Part shown: in pieces, positions 1,045 through 37,359 of the stretch | How the letters are laid out: each line of letters opens with the position of its first letter | Position numbering within the stretch: position 1 is the stretch's first letter | DNA from: Acidimicrobiales bacterium | Lineage (GTDB): Bacteria > Actinomycetota > Acidimicrobiia > Acidimicrobiales > Bog-793 | Reading direction: 5' to 3' | DNA length: 64,000 nt | Assembly (NCBI GenBank): GCA_050013835.1 | Contig: JBEKEM010000004.1 | Coordinates: forward strand, 101,569-165,568 | Position numbers and translations under genes: made by a program | Notes under the pieces: model-generated | What the model saw: only the letters and a program-made list of their open reading frames with translations | What the model was told of the DNA's origin: nothing | The model's database searches: none

Positions 1045-3098
1045 TGGCAACGACCGTCCCCGTCACCGTCGACCGCGAAGTGGAGCCCGACGACGCCCGT
1101 GACGGCCGCTCCGGGCCGATGCGGGGCCTCCACCACGCGATCGCCCCGTTGCTCGCCGCGCGCGGACTGCCGCGCTGGCTCTTCTGGACCGGTGCCGCGA
1201 TCACGGCGTTCTTCGTCGTGCTCGCCGTGTTCGCGCCCCAGATCGCGCCCTACGGCTTTAACCAGTACATGGCGCACGGCGTTCGCTTCCCCCAGCAGGG
1301 TGCGCCGTCCGCGGCCCACTGGATGGGCACGACCGTCGTCTCCGAGGACGTGTTCTCCCGGGTCATCTTCGGCGCGCGCACCTCGATCGAGGTCGTCGTG
1401 CTGGCCCTCGCGTTGAGTGTCGCCATCGGCGTGCCGATGGGTCTCATCTCCGGCTACTTCGGGGGTTGGCTCGACCGGGCACTCGTCCTATTCAACGACT
1501 CGATCTTCGCCTTCCCCTACCTGCTCCTCGCCATCGTCATCGCCTTCCTCCTCCAGAACTCGGTCGGTGGGGGGGTGTTCACCGCGGCGATCGCCATCAC
1601 CGTCGTGTACATCCCCCAGTACTTCCGCGTCGTGCGCAACAGCACGCTGTCGGTGCGCGAGGAGTCGTACGTCGAGGCGGGGCGCGCCCTCGGGGCCAAG
1701 CCGCGCACGGTCATCCGCCGGTACGTGTTCGCCAACGTCATCCAGTCCGTCCCCGTCGTCGCCTCGCTCAACGCCGCCGACGCCATCCTCACGCTCGCCG
1801 GGCTCTCGTTCCTCGGCATCGGCATGGACCCGTCGGTCGCGGCCGAATGGGGCTACGACATCTCACGGGGCATCTCGGACGCCCAGGCCGGCTTCTGGTG
1901 GACGGGGCTGTTCCCGGGGATCGCGATCATCCTCCTCGTCACCGGCCTCACCCTCGTTGGCGAGGGGCTGAACGACAGCTACAACCCGCTGCTGCGCCGG
2001 CCGAACCACCGCTCCTACGCCCTGCCCGGCGGTCAGCGGAAGGCGACCACCACCACCACCACCACCGCCGCCGCGACGCAACCCGTCATCCGGGTACGGG
2101 ACCTGCGCGTCTGGTACGGGACCGACCGCGGCCCCGTACGCGCCGTCGACGGCGTGAGCTTCGAGATCGGCGAGCGTGAGACGCTCGGACTCGTCGGCGA
2201 ATCGGGGTGCGGCAAGTCGACGCTCGGGCGGGGGCTCCTCGGGCTGCTGCCCGTCGGCGCGACCCGCGACGGGGTGGTCGAGTTCGGGGGACGCAACCTC
2301 GTCACGGCGTCGCCGGCTGAGATGCGCAAGCTGCGCGGCCCTGCGATCGGGCTCGTCTTCCAGGAGCCGATGACGCGGCTCGACCCGCTGATGCGGATCT
2401 CGGACCACTTCGCCGAGGCGCTGCGCACCCACGACCCGGACATCTCCGACGCCGAGGTGCGCCGGCGTTCGCTCGAGGCACTCGGCGGGGTTGGCATCCC
2501 GCCGACGCGCTTCCGCAACTACCCCTACGAGTTCTCGGGCGGTATGCGGCAGCGGATCATGATCGCGCTCGCGCTCGTCTTCCGCCCGCGCTTCGTCGTC
2601 GCCGACGAGCCGACGACGGCCCTCGACGTGCTCGTCGAGGCGCAGATCCTGTCGCTCATCGCCGATCTCAAACGGAACTTCGACGCGTCGCTGCTCCTCA
2701 TCACCCACAACCTCGGCATCGTCGCCGAGTCCTGCGACCGCGTCGCCGTGATGTACGCCGGCCGAATCGTTGAGCAGGGCGCCGTCGAGGACATCTTCAG
2801 CCGCCCGGAGCACCCCTACACGCAGGAGCTCATGCGTTCCACGATCTCGCTTTCGACCCGCGAGCTCCACTTCATCCCCGGGGCGCCGCCCGACCTCGTC
2901 GAACCGCCAGCGGGATGCCGCTTCCACCCGCGCTGCCCCGCGGCGATGCGGGTCTGCGCCGCCGCCGCCCCCATCGGCACGGAGGTGCGGCCGGGCCACC
3001 TCGCGGAGTGCTGGCTGCACGGCCCGGCCGACCACCTGACACCCGACGACCGGGTGCCGCTCGAGCGGGAGGAGATCGGCATTGCCGACGAAGCCTGA
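1044..3098 (+). CDS. Fused ABC transporter permease (DppC/OppC type) and ATP-binding subunit (DppD/OppD type)
   Basis: The N-terminal ~330 aa form a membrane permease. A poly-Thr linker (ATTTTTTTAAAT) follows. The C-terminal half is an NBD with Walker A GESGCGKST, signature FSGGMRQR and Walker B FVVADEPTTALD, plus the oligopeptide C-terminal Cys motif (GCRFHPRCP). Confidence 0.85.
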   Translation: MATTVPVTVDREVEPDDARDGRSGPMRGLHHAIAPLLAARGLPRWLFWTGAAITAFFVVLAVFAPQIAPYGFNQYMAHGVRFPQQGAPSAAHWMGTTVVSEDVFSRVIFGARTSIEVVVLALALSVAIGVPMGLISGYFGGWLDRALVLFNDSIFAFPYLLLAIVIAFLLQNSVGGGVFTAAIAITVVYIPQYFRVVRNSTLSVREESYVEAGRALGAKPRTVIRRYVFANVIQSVPVVASLNAADAILTLAGLSFLGIGMDPSVAAEWGYDISRGISDAQAGFWWTGLFPGIAIILLVTGLTLVGEGLNDSYNPLLRRPNHRSYALPGGQRKATTTTTTTAAATQPVIRVRDLRVWYGTDRGPVRAVDGVSFEIGERETLGLVGESGCGKSTLGRGLLGLLPVGATRDGVVEFGGRNLVTASPAEMRKLRGPAIGLVFQEPMTRLDPLMRISDHFAEALRTHDPDISDAEVRRRSLEALGGVGIPPTRFRNYPYEFSGGMRQRIMIALALVFRPRFVVADEPTTALDVLVEAQILSLIADLKRNFDASLLLITHNLGIVAESCDRVAVMYAGRIVEQGAVEDIFSRPEHPYTQELMRSTISLSTRELHFIPGAPPDLVEPPAGCRFHPRCPAAMRVCAAAAPIGTEVRPGHLAECWLHGPADHLTPDDRVPLEREEIGIADEA

Positions 3099-8264: not shown

Positions 8265-8337
8265 CTGGCGGGGGAGGACTCGAACCTCCAACCTCCTGAT
8301 CCAAAGTCAGGCGTTCTGCCTCTTGAACTACCCGCCA
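8265..8337 (-). tRNA. tRNA-Gln (anticodon UUG)
   Basis: A manual cloverleaf fits: acceptor TGGCGGG/CCCGCCA with U1-A72 and G73, D stem GTTC/GAAC, anticodon stem CCTGA/TCAGG with loop CTTTGGA, and T arm GGAGG-TTCGAGT-CCTCC. The tRNA is 73 nt and CCA is not encoded. Confidence 0.9.
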
Positions 8338-21150: not shown

Positions 21151-22269
21151 TCAGCTCCGGTCCTCGGATTCCGAGGACCGGCCGAGCACCTTCGCGAAGC
21201 CGGGTTTGATCATCGTTTCGATGATGACGAGCCGGTCGTCGAAGGGATAGAAGGCACTCTTCATCGCGTTGATCGCCAGCCAGCTGAGCGTGTCCCAGCC
21301 CCACCCGAAGGCGGCGGCGCACGCCGCCAGCTCCGAGGAGAGCGTCAACCCGCTCATCAGTCGGTTGTCGGTGTTGACCGTCACCCGGAAGTGGAGGTCG
21401 CGCAGCAGGCCAATCGGGTGGTCGGCGAGCTCGGCGACGACGCCGGTGTGCACGTTCGAGGTCGGGCAGAGCTCCAGGGGAACGCGGGTGTCGCGGATGT
21501 AGCTCGCGAGACGGCCGAGCGTCACCTCGCCGTCGGGGCCGACCGTGATGTCGTCAACAATCCGCACCCCGTGGCCGAGACGCTCGGCGTTGCACCACTG
21601 GAGCGCCTGCCAGATCGACGGAAGGCCGAAGGCCTCCCCGGCGTGCAGGGTCGCGTGGAAGTTCTCCCGCTGCACGAGCTGGAAAGCGTCGAGGTGCTGG
21701 GTCGGTGGATACCCGGCTTCGGCCCCCGCGACGTCGAACCCGGCGACGCCGGCGCCGCGGTAGCGCACGGCGAGCTCGGCGATCTCCAGTGAACGCGCCG
21801 CGGTCCGCATCGCGGTGAGCAGCGCCCGGACGACGATCGGCCGGCGCGCCTTCGCCGCGACGGCCATGCCGGCCCGGAAGCCCGCGAGGACCGACTCCAC
21901 GACCTCGACGAGCTGGAGCCCTCTCTCCGTGTGGAGCTCGGGCGCGAACCGCACCTCGGCGTAGACGACGCCGTCGGCGGCGAGGTCCTCGACACATTCG
22001 AAGGCAACCCGCTCGAGCGCGTCCTTGTGCTGCATGACGCCCACGGTGTGCGCGAAACCCTCGAGGAAACGCACGAGATCCCGCCGGGGCTCGGCGACGG
22101 CGAAGAAGCGGGCGAGCTCGACGGGATCGGTCGTCGGCAGACCGTGGTAGCCGTACTCCGCGGCGAGCTCGACGAGCGTCGCCGGACGGAGCCCGCCGTC
22201 GAGGTGGTCGTGCAACAGGACCTTCGGGGACCGGGCTATCCCATCGAGCGTGGGAACCGTGTCCGACAT
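21151..22269 (-). CDS. add: Adenosine deaminase
   Basis: PKVLLHDHLDGGLRPATLVELA, HAGE and the TVNTDN motifs are present in a 372-aa ORF. Confidence 0.9.
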   Translation of the reverse strand: MSDTVPTLDGIARSPKVLLHDHLDGGLRPATLVELAAEYGYHGLPTTDPVELARFFAVAEPRRDLVRFLEGFAHTVGVMQHKDALERVAFECVEDLAADGVVYAEVRFAPELHTERGLQLVEVVESVLAGFRAGMAVAAKARRPIVVRALLTAMRTAARSLEIAELAVRYRGAGVAGFDVAGAEAGYPPTQHLDAFQLVQRENFHATLHAGEAFGLPSIWQALQWCNAERLGHGVRIVDDITVGPDGEVTLGRLASYIRDTRVPLELCPTSNVHTGVVAELADHPIGLLRDLHFRVTVNTDNRLMSGLTLSSELAACAAAFGWGWDTLSWLAINAMKSAFYPFDDRLVIIETMIKPGFAKVLGRSSESEDRS

Positions 22270-23023
22270 TGGCAGTCAGGGGCGCGGTGCTCGCGTGGCG
22301 AGCCCGGTTCCCCATCCCCCTTTCCATCCGCACGCGGGGTTTTTCCGCCTGCGGAGTGTCGACGGTGTCGTTGGCACGGCAAGGTCATCTCCCGCGTACC
22401 GCCGCATCACCGCCACCCGCCAGCAGTCGCCCCGGCTGGCTGCGTACACGGCGACACGACGGCGCCAGGGCGACCTGTTCCGTGCCCATAGCCGGCTCTC
22501 GGGGTGTGTGGCACGTGAACTGCGGGCATGCGCCCGTCAGGGAGGTTGGACCAGGCGGTCCTGGTCATGTGCTTGCACCTGCCTGCCCGGCCAGCGTGAC
22601 CGGAGTCGGGGCCCGTCCCTCCGGATGCGTTGTGGTGCACCTCCATCCACGCCACGACGACCCCGTCGGACTCCCGCTTGCCTCCGCTCGATTTCACCAC
22701 CGGCTCATACGAGCGATCCTTGCTGGCGAGGCTGGGGAGACGGGTCCTTCCGGTCCCGTGACCAGGCCATGCGTGCGCACCACCCTCGCGATCCCGGAAG
22801 GACCCAAACGGGAGCGTCTCCTGATCCTGCCAGTCGGTCGGAGAAGGGCCCTCGACGTGACGCGTGCGGCTCTGCTCTCGGTTTGTCCCAGTGACGAGAC
22901 TGCAGGGTGCGCTTGATGCTGCGGCTCGCACGCTTGCTCCGCCCCGGAGAAGGCGATTGACGCCCCGCCAAGCCCGCCGGACCTCGCCGACGGACCGGAG
23001 CCTGCTACCGGGCTCTCGGGCGA

Positions 23024-23473
23024 TCACCCAGGCGGGAATGGCACCCGCAGGTCTGGTCCAGCTTGCAGGACGCACCATGGCCAGACGCTAGTGGCCGACC
23101 GGGTCGTCATCGCCGCCAAACCTCCGGACTGGCGGCGCAGCTCGGTGAGCCGGCACAGCACCAAGGGCACGGGGTCGGGCGGCAACTCGGCGATGGCGAC
23201 ACCGCCGGTGAGCGCCTCGCGGGCCCTGCCGATCCGCTCGGCACCGTCGCCGTGCAACTCGAGGATCACCTGCCCCGTTTTGTCCGCCTCGCCTGGCCTG
23301 ATACGGCGGCCAGCCTCCGCCGAAGCACTCGCCGGGTCTTTCTTACGGGTCCGGCCGGCGCCGAGCCGGGCGCTCGGCCAGCGGATCTCGGCATCGGTGA
23401 GCGACTGCCCGTCTCGCTTCGCGCGAACGAGGTCGACGACATCGATGCCGGAGGCGTCACCCCTAGCCGTCAC
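23024..23473 (-). pseudogene. deoA: Thymidine phosphorylase remnant (in-frame internal deletion of ~320 codons)
   Basis: The N-terminus GIDVVDLVRAKRDGQSLTDAEIRW is joined directly (about 23370-23380) to the C-terminal segment ARLGAGRTRK...GQVILELHGDGAERIGRAREALTGGVAIAELPPDPVPLVLCRLTE. The whole catalytic core (HSTGGVGDK, SGRGLGHTGGT, SIMSKK) is missing. About 38 non-homologous codons precede the stop. Confidence 0.75.
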
Positions 23474-23906
23474 GCGCCGCGTGGGTCGACGGGACGTCCT
23501 CGGGACGGCGCCACGCGGCGGGCAGTAGGTCCCGCAGCAGGACCGGCGCCGCCCCTTCGCCCTGGTCGAGCAGGAGCCCGACGCTGCCGTGCTCAACGAG
23601 GAGCTGGCGGCAGCGCCCGCAAGGCATGAGCGGCCGGCCGTCGTGGGAGACGACGCTGACGGCGACAAGATCCACCGACCCCCCCGCGACGAAGCTCGAG
23701 ATGAGGCCGCACTCGGCGCAGAGCGTGAGGCCGTAGGAGGCGTTCTCGACGTTGCAGCCGACGAAGACCCGGCCATCCGGCGCGAGACCCGCCGCACCGA
23801 CGTGCAACCCCGAATAGGGCGCGTACGCGTTGTGCGCCGCGTGCGCCGCCCGCGCGCGTAGCTCGTTCCAGTCGATCTCCATCTTTGCGATTCGCTGACT
23901 CCGCAT
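23463..23906 (-). CDS. cdd: Cytidine deaminase
   Basis: The zinc motifs CAECGLIS and PCGRCRQLL are present. The ATG at 23906 is preceded by gagggggaa (SD). An alternative ATG at 23882 or the track start at 23999 is possible. Confidence 0.85.
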   Translation of the reverse strand: MRSQRIAKMEIDWNELRARAAHAAHNAYAPYSGLHVGAAGLAPDGRVFVGCNVENASYGLTLCAECGLISSFVAGGSVDLVAVSVVSHDGRPLMPCGRCRQLLVEHGSVGLLLDQGEGAAPVLLRDLLPAAWRRPEDVPSTHAARDG

Positions 23907-24041
23907 CCCCGATTCCCCCTCGCGGGCGGACACTACACTTCCCGGCGCGAAGAAGTTGCCACCGATCGCCAATTCTGCCTCGGGGATCGCTTCCGCCAAG
24001 CCCGCGCCGCGGACGTGACGTCGTCACGCCCGAGACCACTC

Positions 24042-24818
24042 TCATCTCCCACGGGCTGCCGAGCCCGGAAAACCTCGAAGTCGCGCGCCTCTCGAACAGA
24101 ACCTGCGGGACCAGGGCGCCAAAGTGACGGCCGTCGTCGTCGCCGGGGTCGTCGTTCCGATCACGGCGCCGAGCCACTTGGCGGTAATCCGGTCGGCGAC
24201 CGCGAGAACCTCCTTCAGCTTGTGGGTGATAAAGAGGACGGAGCGCCCGGACGCCCCGAGCGACTGCATGATCCGGGACAGCGCCTCGGTCTTCCGCGGG
24301 GTGAGCACCGAGGTCGGCTCGTCGAAGATGAGGAGTTGGGCGTTCCGCGAGAGGGCCTTCAGGAGCTCGACGCGGCGCTGGACCCCGACGGGGAGGTCCT
24401 CCACGAGCGCGTCCGGGTCAACCTCGAGGCCGAACTCCTGTCGGATCTGGCGGATCTCGGTTCTCGCCCGCTTCCGGTCGAACAGGCCGAGATGGTGCGT
24501 CGGCTCGAATCCCAGCACGACGTTCTCCGTCACGGTGAACTCCGGCACGAGCATGAAGTGCTGGCGCACCGTGCCGATGCCGTGTCGGACTGCGGCGCCC
24601 GGATCGGGGAAGCGCATGACCACCCCGTCGAGCGCGATCCCGCCCAAGTCCGGGTACATGAGCCCGAACAAGAGGTTCATCAGCGTGGTCTTGCCGGCGC
24701 CGTTCTCGGCGAGGAGCGCGTGGATCTCACCGGGTTCGGCCGCGAGGTCGACATGGTCGTCGGCCACGAGGGGACCGAATGTCTTCGTGATCGCCGACAA
24801 CTCAATCTTCACGGCCAC
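24042..24818 (-). pseudogene. Truncated nucleoside/sugar (BMP-associated) ABC transporter ATP-binding protein; first NBD only
   Basis: Walker A ENGAGKTT, signature-like LPVGVQRRVELLKAL, Walker B LLIFDEPTSVL and the H-loop FITHKL are intact. Homology ends near ...GAVIGTTTPATTTAVTLA (about 24125). Family members normally continue into a second NBD, to ~500 aa total. Confidence 0.6.
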
Positions 24819-36868: not shown

Positions 36869-37359
36869 GCTCGGTTGACCTCCCGCAGATTCGGGCTTCG
36901 CGGACGTTGCTGTTCGGTCGCGCACGCCCGCGGGAGGCCGGTCCGGATCAGCGGACCCTCAAGTCACCTCGCCACGGACGTGCGCCGTCGTCGTTCGGAC
37001 GAACGTTGATCGGCGCTCAGGGGTTCTCCCTTGTCGTGCCCAAGCTCCAGTCGGCGTGGGTGGAGTCCGATGGGCACGGACCGCCGCGGCGAACGCCTCG
37101 GCGCACCCCTCTCGTCAGAGCTTTGGCGCCCGCCGCCGTAGGCCGTTGGGCCAGCCACTTCGGACGATCCCTTGTGCCGGGAAAGTCTGTCCTGACCCGG
37201 AGTGTCTTTGGACAGGTGGGGTCAGTGGCCTCTGTGCGACGAGCCGCCTCACCGAACGAGGTGCGACTGCTTGCACGGGGATGTTACCCGCGGTGCGCGG
37301 GGCGCTCCAGGGGGTCTCGCGGCGCCTCCGCCGCGTCGCCGCCCGGCCGGCGGGAGGGC

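Follow-up and report, generated by a model that had tools for sequence, protein, structure and literature searches.

Relic of a group II intron on the add start codon of an Acidimicrobiales genome, and a possible intron lineage of leaderless start codons

Results

A group II intron relic upstream of add

In the 64,000-nt stretch of Acidimicrobiales contig JBEKEM010000004.1 analysed here (the window, about 70% G+C), the minus-strand genes cdd, deoA and add, the second reduced to a stub, occupy 21151-23870, and a spacer to which no gene had been assigned lies between the stub and add. This spacer is an 809-nt group II intron relic on the minus strand, and we are highly confident that it is a decayed copy seated at the add start codon. 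Its intron-encoded protein (IEP), a reverse transcriptase (RT)/maturase, is reduced by an internal deletion to an N-terminal remnant, its domains V and VI (D5 and D6) are altered, and its last three bases form the present add ATG. Loss of splicing, activity of the old promoter and the mode of add translation are proposals drawn from the sequence.

The original prediction had read the spacer as either a novel small gene, a frameshifted relic or a GC-rich structured RNA; an Rfam scan and an alignment to relatives were suggested as checks, and clear homology to a known gene with frameshifts was to speak against it. Such homology, to a known element, is what was found. The last two options were each half right: the structured RNA is a group II intron ribozyme and the relic is a truncated RT/maturase. 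The novel small gene was not supported.

The relic runs from GTGCG at 23075 to ...CUGCCAAUG at 22267 (Table 1). The GTGCG at 23075-23071 of the minus strand agrees with the 5' boundary consensus GUGYG and was aligned with the 5' ends of full-length relatives. In the Rfam scan the model group-II-D1D4-4 (RF02003) was matched over its full length with 57.3 bits (gathering score 49, E 1.5e-11); the same model gave 85-95 bits on full-length relatives. It was the single family in the spacer region, with no riboswitch or other Rfam family beside it.

When the spacer was compared with full-length introns by blastn, the identity was 72-76% over 23080-22484 and 74-82% over 22348-22259. Among plasmid records, that of Embleya sp. 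NBC_00896 (L001) matched 23080-22535 at 72%, and the 3' end of its intron also matched 22348-22259. The group II intron in this record (NZ_CP108777, at about 1251835-1253805) is full length, about 1.98 kb, and its open reading frame (ORF) is a group II intron RT/maturase (TIGR04416, E 3e-124). Full-length introns with RT/maturases of 490-526 aa were found in Embleya, in Streptomyces (L089) and on the metagenome contigs L091, L117 and L128, L091 being 76% identical to the window over 23077-22484. Both ends of the relic are collinear with L128: relic positions 2-592 correspond to 2-592 of L128 (74.8%) and 710-809 to 1864-1963 (82%).

The RT is also missing from another copy, L094, which stays collinear with the window throughout the alignment of 841 columns. 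The possibility was considered that the two descend from one mobile ORF-less element, but L094 is 85% identical to L128 and only about 72% to the window, and this candidate was rejected. Because L094 is so much closer to L128, the two deletions are independent, even though their junctions nearly coincide; in L094, IEP residue 104 is joined to the last 6 residues.

The RT remnant and the 223-codon reading frame

A tblastn search with the L128 IEP aligned residues 1-56 with 22700-22530 at 63% identity (E 1e-17), and the Embleya IEP matched the same remnant at 56%. A second, weaker and frameshifted IEP match follows, up to about residue 112, and only about 30 nt separate it from domain V. Some 380 IEP codons, covering the RT fingers/palm and the thumb/X region, have been deleted, so that the intact RT/maturase ORF expected in domain IV is absent. 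Pfam scans found no RVT or GIIM match in any frame of the spacer, and there is no other IEP, RT or intron within the 64-kb window.

The original prediction had drawn attention to a codon-like periodicity of G/C at 22407+3k. At recount, the four blocks of 22501-22740 gave 16, 16, 19 and 15 of 20, the last one lower than reported, and the other two phases gave 8-15/20 per block. The phase totals were 66/80 at the putative third codon positions (GC3) versus 46/80 and 52/80, and the binomial P for 66/80 against the 69.5% GC of the element is 0.006 in a single test. The signal does fade outside this stretch, as had been said: there is none in 22741-23078 (77/112, 78/113, 79/113) or in 22407-22500. 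It is faint beside that of a true gene, the GC3 of add being 0.91. The periodicity is a residue of the RT gene, since 22700-22530 is homologous to the IEP N-terminus, and GC3 within this segment is 47/55.

The 223-aa ORF on the minus strand, with the peptide SYEPVVKSSGGKRESDGVVVAWMEVHHNASGG, exists as described, and the plus frame is closed by stops at 22597 and 22759. The ORF begins at the old add ATG. In intact copies the distance from the host start codon to the IEP start is 371, 374, 377 or 380 nt, always 2 mod 3, and the frame from the host start ends close to the RT start codon (see below). In the window the distance is 378 nt, or 0 mod 3, and the frame does not stop within 7 nt of the IEP start. 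The 223-codon ORF is therefore a chance fusion, in which a frame across D1-D3 that does not look translated runs into the RT remnant, and this is consistent with decay.

Of the two hairpins pointed out earlier, the one at 22328-22354 was exact and is the domain V remnant. The other is present one base away from its reported position, at 22549-22566, inside the IEP remnant. It is kept in the family with compensatory changes (GACCGGG/CCCGGTC, GGCGGGG/CCCCGTC, GGCTCGG/CCGAGCC) and may be an RNA element within the coding sequence, perhaps an IEP binding site. The odd ORF, the periodicity and both hairpins are thus explained by the group II intron relic.

Domains V and VI

A consensus structure was computed with RNAalifold from 46 distinct 3' ends of the family. 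Family domain V reads AAGCCGURUGCGG-GAAAA-CCGCACGYACGGAUU with an AC bulge, aligned as AAGCCGUAUGCGGGAAAACCGCACGUACGGAUU. The Rfam model RF00029 aligned the same D5 in L117 (37.6 bits) and in the Embleya intron (34.8 bits) but gave no match in the window, even when 161 nt were searched at E<=10. Domain V is expected to be a hairpin of about 34 nt with an AGC or CGC triad, a 2-nt bulge and a small loop. In the window the triad is CUC instead of AGC, a G.G mismatch replaces the 2-nt AC bulge and the loop has 7 nt; the (A)AGCCG strand is present in at least 104 of the 111 scorable family copies.

In the family, the outer helix of D6 bulges the A of GACU[A]CCAAUG. The window has CUGCCA where the family has CUACCA, and CTACCA occurs in 116/119 distinct family copies. 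With the RNAalifold assignment, the bulged branch A that is expected 7-8 nt from the 3' splice site is thus missing from the window. The loss of the AGC triad, the AC bulge and the predicted branch A makes it very probable that the window copy is unable to splice.

Position relative to the add start codon

The conserved ATG in which the intron ends doubles as the add start codon (22269-22267). At the other end, the flank GGCCATG at the old add start is identical to the add start of a relative (L012). The layout is TAGCGT-CTGGCC-ATG/GTGCG ... CTGCCAATG-TCG (add), in which the slash marks the 5' junction. When the intron was excised in silico, TAGCGT-CTGGCC-ATG-TCG-GAC... was obtained, that is, an ordinary leaderless add. 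A -10-like box 6-7 nt before the start codon is the signature of a leaderless gene. The matching flank and the restored gene indicate that the insertion took place at the add start codon. A view of the segment as neutral spacer does not hold, given that the element sits precisely between the old add promoter and start codon and the present add ATG.

The alignment to relatives revealed empty sites. In the nearest genome (an uncultured Actinomycetota metagenome-assembled genome with 78% Add identity, taken from the GTDB representatives, among which the species of the window is not found) and in at least 8 further relatives, cdd, a full deoA encoding 420-430 aa and add follow one another with no intron. 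A -10-like box (GAGAAT, GACAAT or CAGAAT) stands 6-7 nt before the add ATG in 6 of the 8 relatives whose junction was read.

The exact Add protein was found on at least 20 metagenome contigs, and the six that were examined all share the arrangement of the window. Four of them (L003, L004, L006, L007) are 100% identical to the window over 2.8 kb; with at least four independent contigs in agreement, the locus is not an assembly artefact. Apart from indels in L005, which are possible assembly errors, the contigs with this locus are identical and so give no signal of polymorphism.

A scan of 22150-23950 for sigma-70 promoters and intrinsic terminators gave no matches; the promoter scan demands a -35 box and is therefore uninformative for the -10-only promoters of actinobacteria.

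As to the exact splice junction, the sequence would fit RTG/UUGCG...CCAAUG/ and RT/GUUGCG...CCAAU/G alike. Insertion before the host ATG is disfavoured: closely related introns differ in their 5' codon (ATG or GTG, 35:14), nearly all distinct 3' ends have ATG as the last codon, and the distance of the bulged A from the end would be only 4 nt. A candidate exon-binding site 1 (EBS1), CAUGG at about 22770, that could pair with the start codon was also rejected, as the homologous positions in L094, L093 and the Embleya intron mismatch their own flanks.

A family of related introns at start codons

To the copies described above, 120 metagenome loci (L096-L215) were added, retrieved by a pattern for the D5/D6 junction. 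The distinct 3' ends read CCAATG in 105/110 and CCAGTG in 5/110, and conservation ends immediately after. The frame of the terminal ATG is open for at least 100 codons in 66 of 99 cases, compared with 9 and 32 for the other frames, and the downstream frame shows coding periodicity (GC 0.69/0.56/0.80 by codon position). Five downstream ORFs were tested and proved to be full-length TrpS, ThyX, MenB, prephenate dehydratase (pheA) and XerC, aligning from model positions 1-3; add, beta-CASP and LysR-like genes are also among the hosts.

On the upstream side, the codon directly before the intron is ATG in 35/49 and GTG in 14/49 distinct 5' flanks. The motif TANNNT lies 6-7 nt upstream of that start codon in 44/49 of these flanks, which are otherwise unrelated. 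The intron begins with U in 38/49 copies, and its last two bases are UG, not AY.

The frame set by the host start codon is free of stops up to the IEP start in 35/40 full-length copies from L096-L213 and L001, and this is true of 0/40 in each of the other two frames, which contain on average 2.9 and 4.5 stops across domains I-III (D1-D3). The frame is 125-128 codons long in intact copies. Its stop is the TGA of RTGGTGA, which overlaps the IEP start, in 31 copies and a TAA 4 nt before that start in 2 more, so that in these 33 copies the end of the frame is at most 7 nt from the RT start codon (RTGGTGA or TAAGCCGATG). Another sublineage has a TAG as the stop, 3 nt before an ATG. The GC content of the D1-D3 frame by codon position is 0.64/0.67/0.66, with no GC3 bias, against 0.71/0.49/0.78 for the IEP; what seems to be kept is therefore the openness of the frame and not a peptide.

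Among the 50 copies recovered with both ends, 10 are internally deleted (L094, L111, L137, L138, L162, L185, L192, L194, L212 and the window), with ten different junctions and lengths of 179-961 nt. Several are without most of D1-D3, and some retain only about 50 nt of the 5' end together with D5-D6. All ten are followed by an intact ORF of 63-481 codons that begins at the terminal ATG, which shows that host genes persist behind dead relics. Decay of copies is common, as two Streptomyces records hold only fragments: about 110 nt of an intron 3' end in L090 (~2975-3084), before the same gene as in L089, and about 190 nt of a 5' end in L002 (4001-4187), beside a lanM cluster.

Three near-identical full-length introns (L106, L165, L180) have in common a 17-nt 5' flank, CTTAGCCTGAATCCGTG, which comprises the -10 box, the spacer and GTG. 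Their surroundings otherwise differ, and in L180 the downstream frame stops after 3 codons. The common flank could be co-mobilised or could stem from a rearrangement.

Table 1. Coordinates of the intron relic and neighbouring features in the window
Feature	Position	Strand	Remarks
add (adenosine deaminase)	21151..22269	-	intact, 372 aa; Pfam A_deaminase, E 4e-102; 78% identity to nearest genome
Group II intron relic	22267..23075	-	809 nt; 5' GTGCG, 3' CTGCCAATG; last three bases are the present add ATG
Domain VI remnant	22271..22320	-	predicted bulged branch A is G at 22273
Domain V remnant	22325..22357	-	contains hairpin 22328-22354; stem kept
Further IEP remnant, ~codons 57-112	22384..22530	-	RT-0 region, shifted frame; ends at deletion junction
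223-codon ORF	22407..23078	-	old add ATG, frame across D1-D3 and IEP remnant
IEP (RT/maturase) remnant, codons 1-56	22530..22700	-	start GTG 22700; source of periodicity
Hairpin GACCAGG-ACCG-CCTGGTC	22549..22566	-	inside IEP remnant, IEP codons ~44-50
Ribozyme domains I-III	22701..23075	-	72-75% identity to full-length introns; no codon periodicity
Domain I segment, Rfam group-II-D1D4-4 (RF02003)	22914..23050	-	model positions 1-138 of 138
Ancestral add start ATG	23076..23078	-	abuts intron 5' end; opens 223-codon ORF
-10-like hexamer TAGCGT	23085..23090	-	6 nt upstream of ATG at 23078; putative promoter element
deoA remnant	23177..23443	-	residues 5-26 (23443-23378) in frame with 356-419 (23368-23177)
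cdd (cytidine deaminase)	23463..23870	-	Pfam dCMP_cyt_deam_1, E 4e-13; upstream neighbour

Neighbouring genes

The deoA stub named in the original prediction is real. By tblastn with the 430-aa DeoA of L014, about 330 codons have been deleted in frame, and Pfam recognised PYNP_C (24 bits) and Glycos_trans_3N in what is left. The remaining frame has no native stop and continues to 23024 inside the intron. Upstream of cdd, the ATPase gene of a nucleoside ABC transporter at 24042-24818 encodes 258 aa with one Pfam ABC_tran domain and, as judged by eye from the translation, seems to stop after the first nucleotide-binding domain. No permease gene adjoins cdd in the window; at this place L009 has a membrane-protein ORF that resembles an ABC permease. 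A second large deletion in the same salvage cluster, in the transporter, is likely. The nucleoside-salvage cluster is eroding overall, with deoA gutted, the transporter apparently truncated and the intron very probably dead, and add is intact. The Rfam scan of the whole window also found an M-box (Mg2+) riboswitch at 37100-37267 (minus strand, 118 bits) and a tRNA gene at 8265-8337 (minus strand, 68 bits), both unrelated.

Discussion

Probable history of the relic

The following history is by far the most probable one. An intron landed precisely on the first codon of an add gene of the leaderless type. Since then an internal deletion has removed the bulk of the RT/maturase gene and left about 56 recognisable and about 50 frameshifted codons. 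The catalytic hallmarks of D5 and the predicted branch A of D6 have been lost as well and, most likely, splicing with them. At present add is probably translated from unspliced RNA at the AUG derived from the intron, the RNA coming either from the old promoter or by read-through from cdd, and the old leaderless AUG probably drives translation of a meaningless 223-codon ORF.

Another possibility considered is that the relic now serves as a long structured 5' leader, exapted to regulate add or to provide its translation signals. The D6 hairpin could, for instance, place GAAAGGGGG beside the terminal AUG as a split ribosome-binding site; a purine-rich run resembling a Shine-Dalgarno sequence lies just 5' of the D6 stem. 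Such a role would agree with an intact add behind an old-looking relic (75% identity or less to any relative), with the predominance of CCAATG among the distinct 3' ends (105 of 110) and with the terminal ATG and intact ORF found in all deletion derivatives that have a D5-D6 end. However, the retention of D5-D6 in these derivatives is an ascertainment effect, as the copies were found with the D5/D6 motif, and the purine-rich run is itself base-paired in the predicted D6. A leader function, which is compatible with a dead intron, is considered unlikely.

Several observations weigh against a dead intron as such. The D5 hairpin of the window is still paired at 9 of 10 positions with compensatory changes. 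The Rfam alignment would set the branch A three bases further upstream, in UGAC, where the window still has its A. The 5' GUGCG and a domain I fold above the Rfam gathering score have been retained as well. A crippled reaction, either trans-assisted or hydrolytic, is thus still conceivable. Furthermore, the match to IEP codons 57-112 is weak (34% identity by tblastn, E 0.27), and neither sequence inspection nor the promoter scan found a Shine-Dalgarno sequence or promoter before the present add ATG, which makes translation of add without splicing harder to account for.

A rival reading is a functional ORF-less intron that is spliced from the add transcript with the aid of the maturase of a full-length copy elsewhere in the genome, in the manner of the ORF-less introns of Thermosynechococcus. 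The intact 5' GUGCG, the RF02003 score and the D5 stem with its compensatory changes speak for it. The RT deletion looks clean in this respect: D1-D3, the first ~105 IEP codons with the conserved hairpin, and D5-D6 have been kept, and the junction lies near that of the independent deletion in L094. Additionally, add is intact and strongly codon-biased. However, the positions altered in the D5 triad, the AC bulge and the predicted branch A are kept in 97% or more of the family copies, RF00029 does not recognise the domain even at the permissive threshold, the D1-D3 frame of intact copies is shifted, and no second intron or RT is present in the window. An intact add does not demand splicing, because dead copies without D1-D3 also precede intact genes. 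Splicing in trans is therefore quite improbable, and a decayed intron is the preferred reading.

That the 223-codon ORF is a genuine new gene can be all but set aside: it is the only long open frame, its ATG follows a leaderless-type -10 box and it is thus probably translated, and similar 'hypothetical proteins' of 184-314 aa have been called on other contigs, but a protein search returned only such translations of other intron copies, the six-frame Pfam scans gave no family beyond a sub-threshold chance match to Sha_B_N, the periodicity is confined to 170 nt of RT origin, and the frame, a frameshift fusion in the window, is closed in intact copies and without GC3 bias in the family.

A proposed intron lineage of leaderless start codons

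The relatives of the relic may form a specialised Actinomycetota lineage of group II introns that inserts at the start codons of leaderless genes (trpS, thyX, menB, pheA, xerC, add), couples its RT to the captured start, hands back a terminal AUG and recognises the promoter/initiation context as its target. This proposal is a tentative one, and we hold the chance that it is right to be slightly smaller than the chance that it is wrong. The mechanism below is the most economical reading of the sequences. The -10 box and start codon of the host would transcribe the intron and translate the frame of about 125 codons across D1-D3. Ribosomes would cross D1-D3 and re-initiate at the RT gene; the termination of the frame on the RT start codon (RTGGTGA) suggests that RT synthesis is translationally coupled to the captured leaderless start. 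With the terminal AUG, host genes would regain a start in frame with their codon 2 and could in this way survive even behind dead copies. The target would be recognised by the context of the promoter and initiation site, possibly an open transcription bubble, and not by long pairing between exon- and intron-binding sites (EBS-IBS).

The established subfamily of the lineage is Rfam D1D4-4 only. Its features resemble those of introns whose IEP has no endonuclease (En) domain (classes C-F, for example RmInt1 and the IIC intron B.h.I1), with which it has in common a GUGCG 5' end, a six-domain ribozyme and an RT/maturase in domain IV. The lineage IEP ends in ...RYPKAA without an En domain (TIGR04416), and D5/D6 of full-length relatives are recognised by RF00029. 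IIC introns insert after terminators (Zimmerly & Semper 2015, PMC4424553), and, as in IIC introns, the 5' flanks of the lineage share a motif and its spacing, not a long specific sequence (PMC4424553). Unlike class C-F introns, the lineage lies behind a -10 box and start codon and not at a terminator or attC hairpin; most copies begin with U, and AUG stands at the 3' end in place of AY.

Mobile group II introns are known to have ORF-less derivatives in Thermosynechococcus elongatus (Mohr et al. 2010, PMC2882425), and remnants of RmInt1 occur in Sinorhizobium (PMC4181065); such copies are considered rare in bacteria (PMC4424553, PMC3245105). As in these cases, the IEP gene of the window copy was lost internally, both ends were kept and full-length relatives exist in the gene pool. 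Unlike them, the window copy has also lost the catalytic features of D5, and in its lineage 10 of 50 copies with both ends carry an internal deletion, all at different junctions.

The insertion niches known so far are terminators and attC sites for class C (PMC4424553) and the groEL stop codon for a IIB1 intron, EcKTE56.groEL (Gomes et al. 2025, PMC12584367). The latter is likewise a specialised lineage at a codon-precise site on the edge of a housekeeping gene, expressed from the host promoter, as would be the case here. However, it targets the stop codon of one gene by sequence-specific homing, whereas the genes at whose start codons the present lineage is found are many and unrelated. Outward-facing expression signals are carried by group IIC-attC introns, according to the account of Leon & Roy given in PMC4424553. 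In both, the 3' end of the intron affects expression of the downstream gene; unlike in IIC-attC introns, the lineage end itself gives the start codon, in frame with host codon 2, and no outward promoter was found. In the literature consulted on group II introns, no description was found of introns at start codons or in leaderless genes, nor of IEP translation coupled to an upstream ORF; an earlier description may exist.

Significance

Decayed group II introns without an RT are already known, and the window copy is unremarkable among them; with it, 0.8 kb of unassigned DNA becomes a defined element. The behaviour of the lineage at start codons is the interesting part and appears to be undescribed. 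On the prevailing view, bacterial group II introns stay out of housekeeping genes, have no expression signals of their own and locate their targets by pairing of sequences or, for class C, through the hairpins of terminators. If the proposal is true, settling on the start codon of leaderless genes would give retroelements a new strategy of survival and targeting, in which the lineage borrows the promoter and start codon of the host for its own RT and returns a start codon to the host. Such a lineage would also serve as a natural probe of leaderless initiation and might provide a basis for tools that target genes close to promoters in Actinobacteria. The existence of cultured carriers, Embleya sp. 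NBC_00896 and Streptomyces sp. NBC_01590, makes the idea of such a lineage directly testable.

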